A stretch of 64,000 nucleotides of DNA, taken from NCBI GenBank assembly GCA_000004695.1, contig CM000153.2, forward strand, positions 5,216,001 to 5,280,000. Direction: 5' to 3'. The stretch is from Dictyostelium discoideum. Taxonomy: Eukaryota. Positions 9,371 through 19,944 of this stretch are shown piece by piece. Position numbers and translations under genes: made by a program. Position 1 is the first letter of the stretch; every line of letters begins with the position of its first letter. The notes below the pieces were generated by a model. The model ran no database searches. It was not told the DNA's origin and saw nothing but the letters and a program-made list of their open reading frames with translations.

Positions 9371-10538
9371 ATGATATCAAGAGTTTTAAAAAAAGGTTTC
9401 ATTAATAATAATAATAATATAGATAAGAATTTAAAATTATTTATAAATAGAAGTTATTGTAGTGGTTCACAAAATAATAATAATAATAATAATGGAATAT
9501 CAACAGAAATTAATGATTTACCAATTTATTTTCATAGAGATTTACAATCAAATAAAGATATTTTCATGATTGGTAGTGTTCATACATCAAGAGATAGTGC
9601 AACTCAAGTTCAAAAGTTTATAAGAGATGTTAAACCAGATGCTTTAGTATTAGAATTGGATGATTCAAGATTCAATAAAATTCGTAATGATATTCATAAT
9701 AAAGATTTAAGTACTTATAAAACACAATCAAATGAAGATGATTCATTTTTACAAATGTTATTTGGAAACCTTTTTGGAGGTCAATCATCTCCATTTGCTG
9801 GAGTATTAATTGTATGTGTTTATTTAAATATATATATTAAATTAATTTTTTTATTTATTTATTCAAATAATTCTTACACATTATTTTAATTTATAGAAAA
9901 ATTTTAAAAAATTTCAAAATACAATGAAAACATTTGGATTAATTCCAGGATTAGAATTTTATTTTGCAATTAAAGAAGCGGAGAATTTAGGTTGTGAAAT
10001 TATATTAGGTGATGTTGATTCAAATATTACAATCAATAAATTATTACATGCAGCTCCAAGTGAATTTTTCTCGAAATCTAATGGTATTTCACCAGATATG
10101 GAAAGACTTAATCAATTAATGTCACCTTTAGTTCATATAATGATGAAAGATGGTGCAACAGAGAAAGAGATTGAAGTTGAATATAAAAGAATATTAAATA
10201 ATAAAACTTTGAATGAAGTAAGATCAATCTTTGAAAAAGAGTTACCAAAAACTTATGAAGCATTATGTATTGGTAGAGAACGTCATATTACTCGTTCCAT
10301 AAAACAATCGAAGGCAAATACAATCGTTGTTGTCGTTGGTGCACTTCATGTTGATGGTATTAAAAAATTATTAAATTTACCTTTAAATGATATTCCTAAA
10401 TCATTACCACCACCTCCAAAATCATCAATCCAAGGTTTACTTGGTGCTTTTGGTTTAGGTGGTGGTGGTAGTGGTGGTATTAACGGTGGTTTTGGTAATA
10501 TGATGAAAGGATTGTTGGGTAATAATAACAATAAATAA
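9371..10538 (+). CDS. TraB-family (TraB/PrgY-like) protein
   Basis: join(9371..9811, 9897..10538). The intron has GTATGT at 9812 and ttatag ending 9896 (phase 0). Motifs GSVHTSRDSA...PDALVLELDDSR and VVVGALHVDGI are typical of the TraB family. It has a Gly-rich C-terminus. About 360 aa. Confidence 0.65.
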
Positions 10539-10816
10539 AATAAATTAATTAATCAATTTTGATTGATTCTGTGCAAACTATAAATATTTTTTTATTTTAT
10601 TTTTCCATTATCATCTTTTTTATATTTGAATATTAATTATCTTCTTCCATTTTTTTTTTTTTTTTTTTTTGTATTGATTAAAAAGTGTTTAGACTTACAC
10701 TTAAGATATTAATTATAGGAGAGATCTAGATTTAGAAATAACAGATGTTTATAATGTTTATAATCTTTCATGTTGAGTGCAGTTTTGTTTAAGAAATGGT
10801 GGGCCTAGTTAATCAA

Positions 10817-10826
10817 GAATCGAACC
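10817..10826 (-). promoter_or_regulatory. extra B box (GGTTCGATTC) downstream of the tRNA gene
   Basis: A B-box-like GGTTCGATTC lies about 33 nt 3' of the tRNA on the same strand. This arrangement is typical of Dictyostelium tRNA genes. Confidence 0.4.
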
Positions 10827-10858
10827 TTGGTTCTATGGGTATTTTTTTAAAAAGTCAT

Positions 10859-10941
10859 TGCAAGAGGCGAGATTCGAACTCGCGAACCGAATGGATGAGA
10901 TCTTAAGTCACACGGATTTAACCAGACTTTCCTACCCTTGC
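10859..10941 (-). tRNA. tRNA-Leu (anticodon UAA), type II, 83 nt
   Basis: The minus strand reads GCAAGGGTAGGAAAGTCTGGTTAAATCCGTGTGACTTAAGATCTCATCCATTCGGTTCGCGAGTTCGAATCTCGCCTCTTGCA. It has a 7-bp acceptor stem (one G-U), the GG of the D loop, the anticodon loop CTTAAGA, a long variable arm and the T arm GCGAG-TTCGAAT-CTCGC. There is one U-U mismatch in the anticodon stem. Confidence 0.7.
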
Positions 10942-11446
10942 TTTGGATGAATCATAATTTTTATTAGCAAAACTCGTTGGTTTGAATTGAAATAAATGAA
11001 GTTTGTCAAAGCAGAAGAAAATGTTAAAACAGATAAAAGGAAAATGATAAATAAGGTAATGATAACTCAAGTGATGAAAAAATTACTTTAAAAGAGAATG
11101 AAGATTATGTTATCAATCAAGAACAAGACAAAGAAGAAATCATGGTTACTCGAGATGTGGAAAATGAAGATTTAGAATTCATATGACGGTAAAGAAGATG
11201 GAGTTTATTATGAAATGGAAGATGGTGATGAAGAGGATGAGGAATTTAAATAATTATGTAAAAAATTATGTTTTAATTCAAAAATGTGATTCAAAAAAAA
11301 AGCATAATTTCAATTCAATTTGAGTTTAACTTAATTTTTTTTATTTATTGCAATTTTTTTTTTTTTGTTTTTTATATTTTCTATTGTTTTTATATATTTT
11401 AAAATTTAATATTTCAGGAATTTTCCAAAGATGGATAGTAAAAATA

Positions 11447-11876
11447 TTAAACAGTATTGCAAGTCAAAACAGTTGAGCCTTTGTTTGTTAAGGTTAATTC
11501 AAATCCTCCAAAACTACGGTCATATTCGGCAAAGTCATTAAATGTATCCTGTTCAGCTGGTGAGACACCGGCTTGCATTTGAATTGTACCAACACCACCC
11601 CCATCAACTTCACAATTAACAACTGTTGGTTTTGTAGCCCATGTTGGCTAAAAATATATAAAAAAATAAAAAAATAAAAAAAATAATTAATAAAAGGTTA
11701 GGATTTTAAAATGAAATAAATATATTATAAAATTTAATAAAATTTACAATTGATCCTTGAGATTGTCCTGGTTGTAAAGTCCATGGTCTAAATAATAATA
11801 ATAATTTTAGGTTATTTATTAGATACAATATCAATTAAAAATGAAAATTTTTTTTATCTTTATATTACCCAGCCAT
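11447..11876 (-). CDS. small hypothetical protein (about 82 aa), 3 exons, absent from the ORF track
   Basis: join(11447..11647, 11748..11787, 11869..11876) on the minus strand, reading ATGGCTGG|gtaata...tatttag|ACCATGGACTTTACAACCAGGACAATCTCAAGGATCAATT|gtaaat...ttttag|CCAACATGG.... The product is MAGPWTLQPGQSQGSIPTWATKPTVVNCEVDGGGVGTIQMQAGVSPAEQDTFNDFAEYDRSFGGFELTLTNKGSTVLTCNTV. Confidence 0.4.
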
Positions 11877-12613
11877 TTTTTATTTAATTTTTTAATTTAT
11901 TTAGAAAATTAAGATGTAAGAAAATTATAATTATTTAATTTTTAATTATTTAATAAAAAAAAAAAAAAAAAATTAATTTAAATACTTTTTTTTTTTTGAG
12001 AAAAAAAAAATAATCAAGATTAAAATAAATAATTAAAATTCAAACAATCTTCTTTTTTTATGTGCATTATAAGAAAGGATTATTTTTTATTGTGATTTTG
12101 ATAAGTAAGTTGGTTCTTCTCTTAAAAACAAAAAATAGAAAAGAGGTTTTTTTTTTAATTTTTCTCCACAAAATATTAAAAAAAAAAAAAAAATTTAATT
12201 TTTAACCCAAAACACTTTTCAAATTAGATTTTTTTTTGGTGAATTTGGCAATTAAAATAAAAATAAAAACTGATTGTAAACGTGTTGTTTAAATTGACTT
12301 TTACTCCTCTTTTTTTATGAAAAAAAAAAATCTTTTTTTTTATTAATATTATTAAATAAATAATTCCAATTTTTTATGGGAATTAATTTATTGTGGTTAT
12401 TTTGTAAATATGGTAAAAATCATTTTTATGTTTTTTTTTTTTGTTTTTTTTTTGATTAGGTGTCTCTTAATTATTCAAAAGTTTTTTTTTTTTTTTAAAA
12501 AAAAGGAATTATTTGAAATGATAATTTTTTGTAATAAATATTCACTTAAAAAAAAAGTTTTTTGGACAATCTTTATTATAATATACTAATAAATCCTTGT
12601 TTTTAGGTTTTAG

Positions 12614-12644
<31 letters not shown>

Positions 12645-12720
12645 GTTTAGATTAAAAAATTTCAAAAATAAAGGAATTAAATGTTTTAAAAATTAAATTA
12701 AATTTATTTATTTATTATTT

Positions 12721-12730
12721 GTTTGTTTTT

Positions 12731-12777
<47 letters not shown>

Positions 12778-12790
12778 TTATTTATTATTT
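12721..12790. repeat. (TTTA)n microsatellite
   Basis: About 14 tandem tttatttattta units. Confidence 0.9.
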
Positions 12791-12842
12791 AATGAAATTT
12801 CGTTTATTTATTTTTTTAATGAAATTTTATTTATCTCTATTT

Positions 12843-12925
12843 CAATGAAATTTCAAACAAAGATATAAACAAATATAAATAAATATATTTTTGTTTATTT
12901 CTTTGTTTGAAATTTCGTTGAATAT
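12843..12925. repeat. inverted repeat / potential hairpin
   Basis: gaaatttcaaacaaagatataaacaaatataaataaatatatttttgtttatttctttgtttgaaatttc is nearly self-complementary over about 80 nt. Confidence 0.6.
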
Positions 12926-13091
12926 TATTTTTAAATGGATCTAATTAAATGACTATGTACAAGGCCAAACGGCTGAAAGGGCTAATTGCAAGGTTTTTTT
13001 TAAAAAAAAAGAACTTCATAGGCTTATAACAAGGTTTTCTTATAAACAAAAATTAAAAAAACAAAAAAACCATTAAATTAATGGGGCAGAT

Positions 13092-13424
13092 TGTTGAACA
13101 TTAACACAATAATTTAACATTTATAATATAAAAATAAATATATAATAAGTTGATGTTTTATCGATAATCCTAAAATTTATTATGCATGTTTTTTTATTGC
13201 TGAAAATTTTTACTTTTTATATTTGAGATTAAAAATTATGTTTATGAGTTTTTAAATCGACATTAAAAACTCACCACGTGGCTTTTTCCCACCTAGGTGA
13301 GAAAAGTCTAATTATATAAACATAAATTATTTTAGTTTGTGAGCGAGATTGTATCTAATTTAATATCTTGATAAAACATAATTTTATTGTAACAATTTAA
13401 TTATTACATAATTATATTACAACA
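13092..13424 (-). repeat. 3' LTR of the element (333 bp)
   Basis: Aligns to 14384..14801 with TG...CA termini. Confidence 0.8.
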
Positions 13425-14383
13425 CGCCACCTTTAGATTTTAATTTTTAAAATATTAAAATCTGATAATAATCTTAAAACATTATGATGATCATTCCATG
13501 TTTTATCACTCCCTCTTTCAACTGGTTTTCAGATTGCACCAATTTATTAAAATTACCAAATTTTTTTTTAACCATAAGAAGTTAAAGATGAAACTGGAAT
13601 CCATGCTTTAGTCTTTGAAATTATTAAATATTCTACCAATAGTTTACCACATTGATTTTCTAAATCTGGATTGTACTATTCATTTAGTGAGAATTAACCA
13701 AACCCATTAGCACACTAATAAACCTTTGGTCCATGGTTGGATCTTTAATGAATTTGACAACAACTTGTTCACGTTTTTAATGGATTTTGGCTTTTTAACA
13801 TTTAACATTAGTTGCTTAATCTGTCAACTTTTCACTTTTTGATTTTAAATTGAGGTTCTGCCAATAACATACTTTAAGTTGATCACCATCACCTTTGAGA
13901 AAATTCACGTTATCACTGAGACATGTTAAGTTAGACGATGGTCTTTGATACTCATCCAATCCAGTAGTTTTTCGGACCACTGATTGATGATTTGAAGTTT
14001 GACTTCCACATCCTTACCATTTACCACTATGACCTGATAATCTGAGGTTCTGATGTGTTCTGCAAGATCTGTCTTCAGCGAGAGCAGTCTCCATACTATT
14101 CATCTCTACCAAATCAGCATCTATAGGGCTGCCACTTACTCAATCTTCACTATGATCCGTTCTCTCAAAAGAATCTTTGTTGATCCCTTTGGTATTGAAC
14201 TATTGGGCTTATGAGACCTACGCTCTATCAACTGAGCCAACACGGCATGTTGATGTTTTTTTTTTTTTTTTTTTTTTAAAAATTTATTTTTATAAAATTA
14301 GTACAAAATAAAAAGGTAATTTACAAGTTATATATTTATTCTTTTAGTTATTTATATTTTTCTAAATCTTTGAGAAGCTACCA

Positions 14384-14801
14384 TGTTGAACATTAACACA
14401 ATAATTTAACATAAATAATATAAAAATAAATAAATAATTAAAATACTCGCCTAAATTTTTGCTCATGTTAGGTTAAGAATCTTTTAATAGAAAAATATAA
14501 TAAAATTAAATAAATAAATATATAAGTTGATGTTTTATCGATAATCCTAAAATTTATTATTTATGTTGTTTTATAGTTGAAAATTTCTACTTTTTATATT
14601 TGAGATTTAAAATTATGTTTATGAGTTTTTCAATCGACATTTAAAACTCACCACGTGACTTTTTCCCACCTAGGTGAGAAAAGTCTAATTATATAAACAT
14701 AAATTATTCTAGTTTGTGAGCGAGATTGTATCTAATTTAATATCTTGATAAAACATAATTTTATTGTAACAATTTAATTATTACATAATTATATTACAAC
14801 A
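14384..14801 (-). repeat. 5' LTR of the element (418 bp, carries an 85-bp insertion)
   Basis: Aligns to 13092..13424. The PBS-like TGGTAGC abuts its inner end. Confidence 0.8.
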
Positions 14802-15259
14802 GCAGATGGAAATTTTATTTTTTTTTATTTTATTTTATTTTATTTAATTTTATTTTTTTTTTATTAAAAAAATGTTTTTGTATTCTTTTTTTGGTAAAAT
14901 CTCAAATTCTCATTTGGAATTATGTATTTTTTCTTTTTTATATTTTTTTTTAAATGTGTATAAAAGGTGTTGATGATTATTTTTTTTATTTTAAAAGTCC
15001 CCGTCATCTATAAAATTTAGAAAGAATGATATCAAATGTAAACTCACCTCAACCTCCCTCACAATTTATTGACGATGGATATTTAGTATTAAGTGAAATA
15101 AACATATGTGATGATTGTTCAAAAAACCAGGAAAATGAAAATGGTAAACACACATTTTATTATATTATAAATACTTTTAAAAATAAATTATTTTTTTTAA
15201 TCTATATCATTTTAATTAATTTCATTTTTATTAATATCATTTTCTTTAATATTATTTAC

Positions 15260-15452
<193 letters not shown>

Positions 15453-15469
15453 TTATTAAACTATATAAA

Positions 15470-16536
15470 ATGAATTTAGAATTAAAAAATATCAAAGAAA
15501 TATTGGATAAACTTACAAAAGGTAATTTTTTATTTATCATTTTTTTTTTTTTTTATTTTTAAAAAATCATATTAATTTAAAATTAACACAATTAATAATA
15601 CATGTAGATTTAAATGCACTTGAAAATAATTTTAATTCTAGATTAAATACACTTGAAAATAATTTTAATTCTAGATTAGATACACTTGAAAATAATTTTA
15701 TTTATTTTAAAAAAGGTATTATTTTACAATTATTATATTTATTTGTTTCTTCTTTATTTATTTATTTATAACTTATTAACTGGATTTATTTTACTGAATA
15801 TTCATTAATAGCAATTGTAGATGAAAAAATAATAATTAGTAAAGTTGGTAAATCTGAATTAATGTTATTGGGATTGGACAATAATTTTAAAATCAAAAAA
15901 ATTAATCAGCCATCAATTTCCCAACAACAACTTATGGAATTAAAATCATTTAATGTATTTGAATGGAAAGAAAATGAAAAATACTATGAATCCACAATGG
16001 ATATCAATAATTATTTTCATTATATCATTGATCAAGAAACTGAAGATATGGAAAATATGTACTTGTCAAATATTTCAAATCAACATACTGCTTTAAAATG
16101 CCAAGTTGGTGATATAGAATTGTCTGGTTCAGGAGATTATTTATTAGTAATTAATGGAAAAGGAAATCCTGAAAAAAGATTTAAATTGGATTTAGATTAT
16201 GTTAAAAATCCTTCAAATTTCGAGTTTGATAACGTTTATCTTGGTTTTGAAATTAAATCAACATCTACAATTAATGAATTTCAAGGAATTGCCGAATTAA
16301 TTGCAATTACAAGAAAATCAAACGGTTTGCACCCAATTCTCCACATTTCAACAAATTTTAATGATAATTATATATTTTCATTTTGGGATATTGAAGGTAA
16401 TGTAAATTGGGTAAAAATCGAAAGAAAATCGGCAATTAATTTAATTCAAAGTTTTGTTTTAAAATCAAAAGAATTTCCAAAAGAAAATTTTTACAATATC
16501 AATGGTATTAATATGTATTCTAAATCATTACAATAA
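15470..16536 (+). CDS. hypothetical protein (about 294 aa) with a short repeated LENNFNSRL(N/D)T coiled-coil-like motif
   Basis: join(15470..15521, 15608..15715, 15812..16536). Intron 1 is GTAATT at 15522 to catgtag at 15607. Intron 2 is GTATTA at 15716 to ttaatag at 15811. Both are phase 1 and the frame continues into track ORF 15862..16536. A possible upstream coding exon at 15026..15143 is described in the findings. Confidence 0.55.
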
Positions 16537-16692
16537 TGTTATTTTATTGTATTTTTTTTATATATCTCAAGAATAATAATTTTCCCAAATGATTTAAGTA
16601 AAAAAATATTAATTAAAAAAAAACAACAATAAAACCTTTTGTTTCTCTTTGATTTTATTTAATTGTTTTAATAAACAAAAAAATAAAATTAG

Positions 16693-16725
<33 letters not shown>

Positions 16726-16784
16726 AATCTAAAATGGCATTTACAACAAAAATAATTTATTTTTATTAATTTTTTTTTTTATTC

Positions 16785-19065
16785 TTAATTATTATTATTA
16801 AAATAAATTTGGAATTTACTACCAAAAGTTAAATAAATTGGGTCCAATGTATTTAAAATAATATTATCATATTCGGTTGATAATAAAGTTAAATAAACAG
16901 ATGGATTAAATGTTAACATTTCAAAAGTGATAGTAGTTTGATTCCAACCAACATTGAATGTTGATCCTATATAATTCATTGATCTAATTTTAAGACTTGT
17001 TGTACCTTCTGGTAATTGAGGATAGAAATCCAAATTGCCTTGATGAATTCTAACTCCACCATAACCAAACATAAGACCTTGAAGGAATCCACCTAAAATA
17101 TATGAATATATATTAGTTTATGTTATAATTTTTATACTATAGTATTTACATTTATTACTTACCCATTCCTGTAGCAAAGTTAACAGCTCCACCAGTTGGA
17201 GTTTCAGTCCATACTAAGAATGGAGAGTTATTACAATTATTATAAGAACGAAACCATTGTTTAGTTGCATTTTCAAGACTTTCCAATTCTAACCATGCAA
17301 CGGTATGCATTGAATAAGTCATTGCAGGACCACTATTTGTTGTAACTGCTTCATAATAAATTAAATCATTCTTTCTAGCTTCTTTACTCATATTATACAT
17401 TAAAGGGAAACCTAATAAAACCACATCAGCTTGTTTGATAGTTTCACCATTATAACCTTGATACTCTGGATGCCATTGATTAACCTCATCAAATAAAATC
17501 ACTAAACCATTTGCAATTGATGACCAATGTTCAAATGGAATATTCTCTGTATCATTAATCAATGTTGCTACCTCAATTACCCATTCAAATGTCATTTTAA
17601 CAGCAACATTTGTATAAACTGAATTATTAACACCAACTGCATATTCATCTGGTGGAATAATAGTATTGATAGAATATTGTTGATTTAATTGATCATATTC
17701 AACTCTACTTGCCCAAAATTCTGCAATACCTTTAAGTGCTTTATAACCAAAATCAATTAACCAATCTAAATCACCTGTTAAATAATAATATTGTCTAATT
17801 GCTAATGCTATATCTGCTGTTATATGTTGTTCTAAAATACCCTATATAAATTTATAATTTATAATTAATATAAATTTATAAAATTTTAAATATAATATAT
17901 ATATATTACTTACAGTTGGAGCAAAAGTTGGACAAACTTCTATTCCAGTGAAAGCACTCTCCCATGGAAACATAAAACCAGTATAATTATTTGATTTATA
18001 ACTTAAAGCTTTTTCATGAGCACCTGGTAAATTATTGATACGATATTGTAAAAGACAATCTCTTACAAGTTTTGGATTTAATAAAAGTATTGGTGGAAGC
18101 ATCCAAGTTTCAGTATCCCAAAATGAATGACCATTATAACCATCAGATGCTAAACCACCTGGTGACATACCATATGACCAATCATCTCTAATTGATGAAA
18201 ATAAATAATACAATGAGGAATTTACAACTTGTTGTAAATGTGAATCTCCACCAACTTCAATACCAGATATCCAAATTTTATTCCATTCATCTAAATGACT
18301 CTTGATCAATTGATCAGCTAAAAGAAATGTTGTTTTATAAATATCTAAACTACCTTCGATATAATCATTTGTTTCAATATTTGTTAAAAATGAGGTGACA
18401 TAATGATGTTTCTTTTTCTCACCACTTTTAATTGTAATTGATTGAGGTATGGTTGTAGTTGTGACGGCCACTGATGTCATAAAATTAACTTCTGGCACTT
18501 TAATAGTAAGATTATACAATTGATAATCATTACCTGTGAATTGAGTATTTGTTAAATTTAAAATATTGAAATCAACATTTGCTGTAAGATTAATACCAAC
18601 AACACTCAATTGTAATGTGACATCTGTTTCAATATTACTATTATCAACTTCAATCTCTTGTACTAAAATATTTCTAATTTTTTGATGAGCATAAAAAATT
18701 TGTTTAACAATTGTACCTGGTGATGATGGAATTGAATAAACTCTAGTATAGGTTGCATTCTCTATATCTAAACCTGCATATTGAAATTGAGCATTACTGA
18801 TTTCAATATTTTGAAAATTTGGTATACCTGCTCTATGAGATGGTAAATTATTTGCATCTCCTAAATTTATAGCTGGTCCATTATACACACCACCAACATA
18901 TATTGATTCACCACCAATTACAAATGCAACATATCCATTACCAACATTTGTCATCAAATAATTAGTTGGTTCTTGTTCACCATTTGAAATTGATAATAAA
19001 TTACCTGCTTCAACTCTTTCATTCCACCATTGTGGTGGTTGTAAATATTCTTGTGAATTAATAAT
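16785..19065 (-). CDS. glycoside hydrolase family 65 protein (acid trehalase-like / PGGHG-ATHL1 homologue); 5' end not resolved
   Basis: join(16785..17092, 17163..17841, 17914..19065) on the minus strand. The intron donors are GTAAGT after ...CPTFAPT (17913) and GTAAGT after ...TGMG (17162). The acceptors are tatatag (17842) and ttttag (17093). Conserved GH65 motifs are present: N-terminal NGYVAFVIGG...VYNG and catalytic GHSFWDTETWM. It aligns by eye to human PGGHG (VNNSVYTN, QADVVLLG, TSPQGPAMTWSM, GGAVNFLTGMGGFLQ). The exon beginning at 19065 follows a cag acceptor after a T50 tract, so at least one short 5' exon is missing. Confidence 0.75.
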
Positions 19066-19068
19066 CTG

Positions 19069-19123
<55 letters not shown>

Positions 19124-19944
19124 ATTAGTATTTGAAACTAAATTTTATTTTTTATCTTTCACCTAAAAAAAAAAAAAAGCATACAGATATTAAAACAATT
19201 ATAATAAATAATTTAATAATAATATTATTTTCATTTTATTAATAACCGATTATTGGTAACCAATAAAAAAAAAAAAAAAAATAAAATCTTTTTAACAACT
19301 TTTTTTGATTGGTTTTTTTTTTTTTTCAACCAGGAAAAAAAAAAAAAAATAAAATAAAATAAAAATAAATTAAAATTAAGATAATGGAATTTGGGATTTT
19401 ATAAAAAATTTAAAAAAAATATTTATTCGTAAATGGTATTTTTTGGGCGAAATCAAAATTATCCTAACACCAATACCATTGCTATTATTACTATTTTTTT
19501 TTTTTTTTTAATAATTATTAAATGGTGTTATTATTACAAGTGGACTTTTACCAATTAAAATAAAAAAGAGAAAAAAAACAAAAAAAAAAAAAATAAGAAA
19601 ATAAAAAAAAAAAATTTAATTTGATATTATTATACATTTAGATATGATATAATCAAAACAATGATTTGATTATATGATATATTTGTTATTTTGCTTTTAT
19701 TATAATAAATAATAATCACTTTTTAAAGAAAAAAAATAAATAAAAAAAATAAAAAAAAAGAGTGATATAATTTTGGTAAAGGTGTAGTGTGCTATTTACT
19801 GTGGTTGTTGTTGTTGTTGTTGTTGTTGTTATTGAGTAGTTTGATTTGTGAAGGGGTATGTGTGTATAATGTATAAAGTTGGTTTCTTTAAAATATTATT
19901 TCATTTTTTATATGGATTTTATGTGAGTGTGTATAGATAAATAT

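Follow-up and report, generated by a model that had tools for sequence, protein, structure and literature searches.

The 64,000-nucleotide stretch analysed here, referred to below as the window (Dictyostelium discoideum chromosome 4, AX4 type; assembly GCA_000004695.1, contig CM000153.2, positions 5,216,001–5,280,000), contains a 1,710-bp retroelement with long terminal repeats (LTRs), which lies on the minus strand in a gene-dense locus. It is a real LTR retroelement insertion, and belongs to a known kind of element rather than to a new one. Our overall reading, to which we assign a probability of about 0.7, is that the element integrated in the AX4 lineage and was mobilised in trans. Coordinates, given throughout as positions in the window, are collected in Table 1. 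An earlier account of the window, based on its letters alone and here called the sequence-only reading, had already proposed a retroelement at this position, and its claims are taken up below together with the evidence that bears on them.

The element is bounded by two direct repeats of 333 and 418 bp, which align with 13 mismatches over 333 positions, corresponding to 96.1% identity and a Kimura two-parameter distance of 0.040. Both repeats begin with TGTTG and end with CAACA, i.e., each LTR is closed by a terminal inverted repeat of 5 bp with the TG...CA pattern, and a 30-nt GC-rich core of the LTR occurs exactly twice in the 64-kb window where no occurrence would be expected. The difference in length is due to about 85 bp (about 14437–14521) in the longer copy that are bounded by AAATAAATA-type repeats, and that were probably lost from the 333-bp LTR by slippage between these repeats. 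Read in the sense direction, the 5' LTR has a GC-rich palindrome, CTCACCTAGGTGGGAAAAAGTCACGTGGTGAG, at 123–154, and TATAAAA at 204 and 227. The hexamer GCAGAT stands immediately outside both ends of the element, as a target-site duplication (TSD) would. The pair of repeats and the flanking hexamers are present exactly where the sequence-only reading had placed them.

A comparison with other strains identifies these hexamers as the two copies of a duplicated target. Orthologous regions of other assemblies were located through the orthologs of the GH65 gene to the right of the element. In ACTFIW and ACTFIR, two assemblies of 'D. discoideum' that have diverged from the window by roughly 8–10%, the site is uninterrupted and reads ...AATTAATGGGG-TAGAT-GGAAATTTT..., with a single copy of the hexamer that differs from the AX4 copies by C/T. 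When the AX4 flanks are joined with one copy of the TSD (...CATTAAATTAATGGGGCAGATGGAAATTTTATTT...), they align without a break to the ACTFIW sequence (...CATCAAATTAATGGGGTAGATGGAAATTTTATTT...), in which the empty site GTAGAT occupies minus-strand positions 13712–13717 of the fetched region L006. A paralogous copy of the target-site region in ACTFIW also aligns without a break, and the empty site in ACTFIR (region L009) is the same as that in ACTFIW. The search for an empty site had been set beforehand as the test on which the retroelement proposal could fail, and the proposal passes it in both strains: an empty site with a single hexamer implies true integration with a 6-bp TSD, and excludes a local segmental duplication as the origin of the repeats.

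The element is also present, with identical sequence, in a second AX4-type assembly (GCA_054883475.1), which is 99.9% identical to the window across the 15,114 bp compared. Two assemblies of 'D. cf. discoideum', ACTFIY and ACTFIZ, lack the whole segment corresponding to 12639–16570 and are uninformative with respect to the insertion site. In D. citrinum, intergenic divergence prevents alignment of the orthologous site, and no match to the element was found in the orthologous region. The 4% divergence between the LTRs is lower than the divergence of the flanks between lineages, which fits an insertion in the AX4 lineage that postdates the split from the lineage of ACTFIR and ACTFIW.

The inner edges of the LTRs carry the two priming signals expected of such an element. 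The 5' LTR, read on the minus strand, ends with ...GTTCAACA, and is followed, with a 0-bp gap, by the primer-binding site (PBS) TGGTAGCTTCTC. At the other end of the interior, AAAGGTGGCG abuts the 3' LTR, and by its position and sequence is a candidate polypurine tract (PPT). Both signals were in place as predicted by the sequence-only reading. When the element is read in the reverse orientation, there is neither a TGG nor a purine tract at the LTR edges, which assigns the element to the minus strand.

The bases U72 and A73 are a hallmark of the eukaryotic initiator tRNA-Met, and the PBS would accordingly point to an initiator-Met-like primer that ends with ...GCUACCA-3'. In the yeast elements Ty1 and Ty3, the PBS begins with TGGTAGC... 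and the primer tRNAiMet ends with ...GCUACCA. The PBS described here begins in the same way, but unlike Ty1 and Ty3 the element has no coding domains. The putative primer assignment presupposes a D. discoideum tRNA that ends with ...AGAAGCUACCA; the tRNA genes in the D. discoideum DNA examined are for tRNA-Leu only. Self-priming of the Tf1 type was considered and rejected, as no complement of the PBS exists within the element. A literature search with the PBS string gave nothing relevant. The description of the PBS as copia-type, which was part of the original proposal, has to be abandoned. The gypsy-type element Ty3 is primed by tRNAiMet, as are Ty1 and Ty5 (PMC5371799), and since this primer is common to both groups, the type of PBS does not distinguish copia from gypsy. 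Neither the protease–integrase–reverse transcriptase–RNase H order nor a copia-clade reverse transcriptase can be recognised in the element, where pol remnants amount to zero, and in the absence of pol sequence a superfamily cannot be assigned.

The 959-bp interior between the LTRs has no coding capacity. Its longest open reading frame (ORF) is 54 aa and its longest stop-free stretch 65 codons, in agreement with the earlier claim that no ORF of at least 60 aa is present. The best of the six frames has 18 stops and a 65-codon open run, compared with means of 16.9 and 73.5 in composition-matched shuffles, i.e., the interior shows no excess of ORFs over such shuffles. Pfam scans of stitched pseudo-proteins from the interior gave nothing relevant, and a word-indexed search of 5.8 billion proteins with the interior found no homologs. 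In a full HMMER search of 1.84 billion representatives with the 65-aa stop-free stretch, only the predicted protein DDB_G0287049, which is discussed below, was returned in addition to repeat-protein and low-complexity noise. The idea that the minus-strand frames preserve what is left of a protease or of gag was dropped in view of the blank Pfam result and the shuffle test, and the genes of an autonomous element (gag together with protease, reverse transcriptase, RNase H, and integrase) are not found between the LTRs. With respect to base composition, the interior is similar to a transposable element (TE). Its GC content is 35% in the core and 31% overall, which is above that of host exons (28–30%) and close to that of the coding DNA of Skipper (ORFs 33%) and DIRS-1 (39%); the value for the window is 22.6%.

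The reference annotation has a gene model inside the interior, DDB_G0287049 (XP_637393.1, Q54KX7), with 94 aa and three exons. The predicted protein is stitched together from three stretches of the interior and forms a singleton cluster, and in a newer annotation of the AX4-type assembly, the whole of 10534–15109 of the window is free of called genes. On these grounds the model is probably spurious, and DDB_G0287049 represents retroelement interior that was misread as a gene. A search of the literature on DDB_G0287049 gave nothing relevant.

Table 1. Features of the retroelement and of its neighbourhood, in window coordinates
Feature	Position	Strand	Remarks
TraB protein gene, spliced	9371–10538		DDB_G0287043; exact-sequence match, AX4
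tRNA-Leu(UAA)	10859–10941		nearest tRNA gene to the element, 2,145 bp off
TSD, left copy, GCAGAT	13086–13091		from sequence reading; single G(T)AGAT in ACTFIW/ACTFIR
3' LTR, 333 bp, TGTTG...CAACA	13092–13424	minus	96.1% identical to the other LTR
Polypurine-tract-like AAAGGTGGCG	13425–13434	minus	abuts 3' LTR; 8/10 purines; putative function
Non-coding interior, 959 bp	13425–14383	minus	GC 31% overall, 35% core
DDB_G0287049 gene model	13569–14094	minus	94 aa, 3 exons; inside interior; probably spurious
tRNA-Met(CAU)-like relic, degenerate	14175–14246	minus	read from sequence
A22 run	14256–14277	minus	9 nt upstream of the relic; AATAAA just before the run
PBS TGGTAGCTTCTC	14372–14383	minus	directly after 5' LTR; complementary to RNA 3' end ...GAGAAGCUACCA
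5' LTR, 418 bp, TGTTG...CAACA	14384–14801	minus	from repeat search and alignment
TSD, right copy, GCAGAT	14802–14807		from sequence reading and empty site
GH65 gene	16785–19500		'acid trehalase-like protein 1'; exact-sequence match
Downstream ORF			part of DDB_G0287035 (lmpB); exact-sequence match, AX4

Two further features of the interior concern its possible origin. The stretch that resembles tRNA-Met is a relic and not a gene, but the resemblance is real. The 5' part of the relic (14246..14206, minus strand) provides an acceptor strand, a D arm, and an anticodon arm with a CAU anticodon, and retains the conserved U8, A14, G18, A21, and U33. A B-box or T-loop-like AGTTCAATACC follows, while neither the T stem nor the 3' acceptor strand is intact, and the fit to a tRNA is therefore limited to the first ~43 nt and AGTTCAATACC. 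The relic is not detected by ARAGORN, even at 80% thresholds, and Rfam returns nothing for it at E≤5. The likeness reported by the sequence-only reading is thus retained, whereas its placement is revised and its fit to a tRNA is partial. The A22 run may, as a speculation, be a captured poly(A) tail; A-runs are common in the D. discoideum genome. Taken together, relic and A22 run could suggest a mosaic interior that arose when host RNAs or DNA were taken up by read-through or template switching. Again as a speculation, the layout observed would result if the reverse transcriptase had switched to a poly(A) tail and, 5' of m1A58, to a tRNA.

The LTR families reported for D. discoideum are DGLT-A, Skipper-1, and Skipper-2 (DGLT-P), in addition to DIRS-1 (PMC5006619, PMC5633606), and according to Spaller et al. 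the species has no Ty1/copia elements (PMC5006619). DGLT-A, a Ty3/gypsy-like element whose solo LTRs are the H3R elements, has a 265-bp LTR, a single gag-pol ORF, and a PBS (TGGCGACATCGTCTTTC) located 2 bp past the LTR to which no matching tRNA is known, and it inserts 13–33 bp upstream of tRNA genes (PMC5006619). Besides the host and the possession of LTRs, the present element shares two features with DGLT-A: there is a TGG-type PBS close to the left LTR, and the right LTR adjoins a polypurine tract (PMC5006619). It differs in having LTRs of 333/418 bp and the PBS TGGTAGCTTCTC at 0 bp, and in its distance of 2,145 bp to the nearest tRNA gene, and thus shows neither the LTR length and PBS nor the insertion preference of DGLT-A. 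A DGLT-A solo LTR directly upstream of the tRNA-Leu gene in the window was also considered, and rejected, since the sequence at that place is an acidic coding-like stretch.

Skipper-1 and Skipper-2 are chromoviruses with a chromodomain integrase, in which a polypyrimidine stretch replaces the PBS (PMC5006619; PMC5633606). Skipper-1 has a 390-bp LTR and resides in centromeric clusters (PMC5006619; PMC5633606). It is an LTR element from the same host, with an LTR of similar size, but the element described here has a TGG PBS and lies in a gene-dense locus, and sequence similarity to the Skipper-1 copy compared, the polypyrimidine stretch, and a centromeric location are all missing. Skipper-2 has a 208-bp LTR and inserts 8–23 bp downstream of tRNA genes (PMC5006619), and differs from the element in LTR length as well as in tRNA distance. 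Comparison of the element by blastn and tblastx with a 20-kb Skipper-1/DIRS-1 cluster, including Skipper LTR copies of roughly 400 bp, revealed no similarity, and a search with published GPY/F peptides returned only Skipper-1 fragments. Neither the remainder of the window nor about 240 kb of Dictyostelium DNA retrieved for comparison, the 20-kb centromere-type TE cluster among it, contains a further copy of the element. As expected, the LTR core and the LTR–PBS junction had 0 matches in metagenome and prokaryote-genome collections. From the literature and the reference annotation, it is plausible that the element is uncatalogued, and we consider this probable, with the comparison to DGLT-A and Skipper-2 made by description.

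The element is very probably non-autonomous, and in its general architecture it resembles the non-autonomous TRIM, SMART, and LARD elements (plant TRIMs, PbTRIM of ants, and Cassandra), which have TG...CA LTRs, a PBS, a PPT, and a TSD, and an interior devoid of gag and pol. The non-coding interior with PBS and PPT between LTRs that defines the TRIM/LARD group is also present here, and mobilisation in trans is presumed for such families as it is for the element. For TRIMs in the strict sense, the LTRs measure about 100–250 bp and the complete element stays under about 1 kb. With LTRs of 333/418 bp and a total of 1,710 bp the element falls outside these limits; its size exceeds that of classical TRIMs and lies far below that of LARDs, and one copy is known. 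No TRIM/LARD-type element in Dictyostelium was found described in the literature examined. Cassandra is described as carrying 5S-derived sequence (PMC7215508), and the element likewise holds sequence that stems from a gene of the Pol III type. A difference from these families is that the tRNA-like piece is located in the interior rather than in the LTR, and is structurally broken.

A course of events compatible with these features can be outlined as follows. An RNA with the layout R-U5-PBS...PPT-U3-R would be transcribed from a progenitor copy. A host tRNA ending with ...GAGAAGCUACCA, with U72 and A73 as in initiator tRNA-Met, would prime minus-strand cDNA at TGGTAGCTTCTC, and plus-strand synthesis would begin at the AAAGGTGGCG tract. 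Integrase would then trim the cDNA to its TG...CA ends and insert it at GCAGAT, where the target would be cut with a 6-bp stagger. Both reverse transcriptase and integrase would be supplied in trans by an autonomous LTR retrotransposon, since an interior that has no coding capacity, and that probably lacked it already at integration, requires these proteins from elsewhere. After insertion, the two LTRs became 4% divergent, and one of them lost ~85 bp. Among these steps, it is the outcome of integration that is directly observed. The change per LTR since insertion is about 2%, and this small amount of change together with the lack of ORF fragments and of homology favours an interior that was non-coding at the time of insertion. 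We therefore find it rather likely that the short non-coding form was itself reverse-transcribed and integrated by proteins acting in trans.

The same structure could have been produced if an autonomous element of 5–7 kb inserted, and deletions in situ later removed gag-pol and left about 0.9 kb of scraps. Such decay has precedents, as every DGLT-A and every Skipper-2 copy in D. discoideum is reported to be incomplete or degenerate (PMC5006619; PMC5633606), and one LTR of the element has itself suffered a loss of ~85 bp. However, at an LTR divergence of 4% the coding scraps should be about 98% intact, whereas the interior has neither an ORF excess over shuffles nor homology to retroelements, and the tRNA-like relic and the A22 run are foreign to a normal gag-pol element. 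In normal LTR elements, moreover, non-coding interior sequence amounts to no more than a few hundred bases. We regard a wreck in situ as unlikely; that only one copy was seen speaks in its favour. The element may alternatively be a divergent and degenerate member of DGLT-A, Skipper-2, or Skipper-1. No other LTR families have been reported from D. discoideum (PMC5006619, PMC5633606), and a TGG-type PBS as well as a polypurine tract beside the right LTR can be found in DGLT-A. Membership is nevertheless improbable in view of the published LTR lengths of 265, 208, and 390 bp compared with 333/418 bp, the differences from DGLT-A and the Skippers in type and spacing of the PBS and in distance to tRNA genes, and the lack of blastn or tblastx similarity to the Skipper-1 copy (including its LTRs) and to DIRS-1. 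A third explanation would do without mobility altogether: the locus would be a segmental duplication of local extent, or the repeats would by chance enclose a host gene, DDB_G0287049. The 94-aa gene in the reference annotation and the tendency of the region to rearrange in other strains would agree with it. It is extremely improbable, given the precise empty site with one hexamer in two strains, the TG...CA termini, and the placement of PBS and PPT exactly at the inner LTR edges, and given that DDB_G0287049 is a singleton without a homolog among the 1.84 billion representatives, lacks an ORF signal, and is absent from the newer annotation.

Integration in the AX4 lineage followed by 4% LTR divergence, with mobilisation in trans, is thus the reading we prefer, but several points weigh against it. 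The PPT is imperfect, with 8 purines in 10 positions, and the primer tRNA is a putative one, deduced from the PBS. A TSD of 6 bp is at the upper end for LTR retrotransposons, and those of Ty1 and Ty3 are usually 5 bp. With a single copy seen, a family and an autonomous partner are hypothetical, and a large deletion in situ is left with some probability. In addition, it is by published descriptions that the element is set apart from DGLT-A and Skipper-2.

A more far-reaching proposal is that the element represents the first member of an undescribed non-autonomous LTR family in Dictyostelium and in Amoebozoa, distinguished by a mosaic interior, an initiator-type PBS, and insertion away from tRNA genes and centromeres. 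The mosaic would, speculatively, combine a tRNA-Met piece, comprising the 5' part as far as the T loop, with the end of a polyadenylated transcript. We hold this proposal to be unlikely as it stands. If it is true, there would have to be an unknown autonomous partner, or cross-mobilisation by the proteins of DGLT-A or Skipper.

The genome of D. discoideum is compact and gene-dense, and the LTR elements described from it target tRNA genes or reside in centromeric clusters. Since the TE catalogue stems from homology-driven surveys, an element that is non-coding would be missed. The present insertion would correct a reference gene model, with DDB_G0287049 being probably retroelement interior, and the LTR element thereby added is canonical in structure and has a TGG PBS, in contrast to DGLT-A, for which there is no matching tRNA, and to Skipper, which has no PBS. 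It is an example of euchromatic integration without tRNA targeting, and its presence or absence furthermore serves as a dated marker between D. discoideum lineages. Should there be a family and a partner, they would offer a system for the study of trans-mobilisation in an amoeba with good genetics. If the element is a lone relic, the outcome is an ordinary annotation fix.

On the left side of the element, the tRNA gene that had been noted at ~2.2 kb is tRNA-Leu(UAA), at a measured distance of 2,145 bp. In the intergenic DNA between the two, a block at 11447–11976 (and 10952–11330) is 69% identical to D. citrinum (L003 11939–12408), with the surrounding intergenic DNA being unalignable. The first part is GC-rich, and an acidic coding-like stretch is found just upstream of tRNA-Leu. 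For these segments there is no gene in the newer annotation and no match in Rfam. Closer to the element, about 170 bp left of the insertion, a near-perfect hairpin (12841–12922) is formed by 40-nt arms that are 90% complementary and separated by a 2-nt loop. Folded as RNA, it has a minimum free energy of -37.9 kcal/mol (z = -11.5 versus shuffles), and it is conserved in ACTFIW and ACTFIR. Matches to miRNA families in Rfam are sub-threshold only, and the hairpin may be a precursor of the miRNA-like type, or else a small palindromic repeat.

The same intergenic region has been rearranged in other strains. Between GH65 and tRNA-Leu, ACTFIW (L006) and ACTFIR (L009/L004) have a segmental duplication beside tRNA-Leu that consists of a second target-site region, a 220-aa gene, and an inverted GH65 fragment. 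TraB no longer adjoins tRNA-Leu in these strains. The rearrangement is lineage-specific. ACTFIZ (L010) has an insertion of ~3.85 kb (about 14270–18080) that is absent in AX4 and starts ~50 bp upstream of tRNA-Leu. An ORF of 226 aa in this insertion matches zf-RVT weakly (E 0.0035, below the cut-off), and the insertion is probably a TRE5-type non-LTR retrotransposon at the canonical distance.

To the right of the element, the 'gene at 15026' of the sequence-only reading could not be upheld. Most of the ORF at 15026–15403 is a (TAT)n poly-Tyr run, which forms part of a repeat with 9/15-bp periodicity (15026–15474), and the ORF is not called in the newer AX4-type annotation. The nearest well-supported gene in this direction is a 224-aa ORF at 15862–16536, whose annotated orthologs are 220 aa long in ACTFIW and 155 aa long in ACTFIR. 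It is included in the segment that is missing from ACTFIY and ACTFIZ, and is either specific to the AX4 clade or deleted in the 'cf. discoideum' lineage. Upstream of this ORF, three tandem 33-bp units (TTAAATRCACTTGAAAATAATTTTAATTCTAGA) occupy positions 15610–15708.

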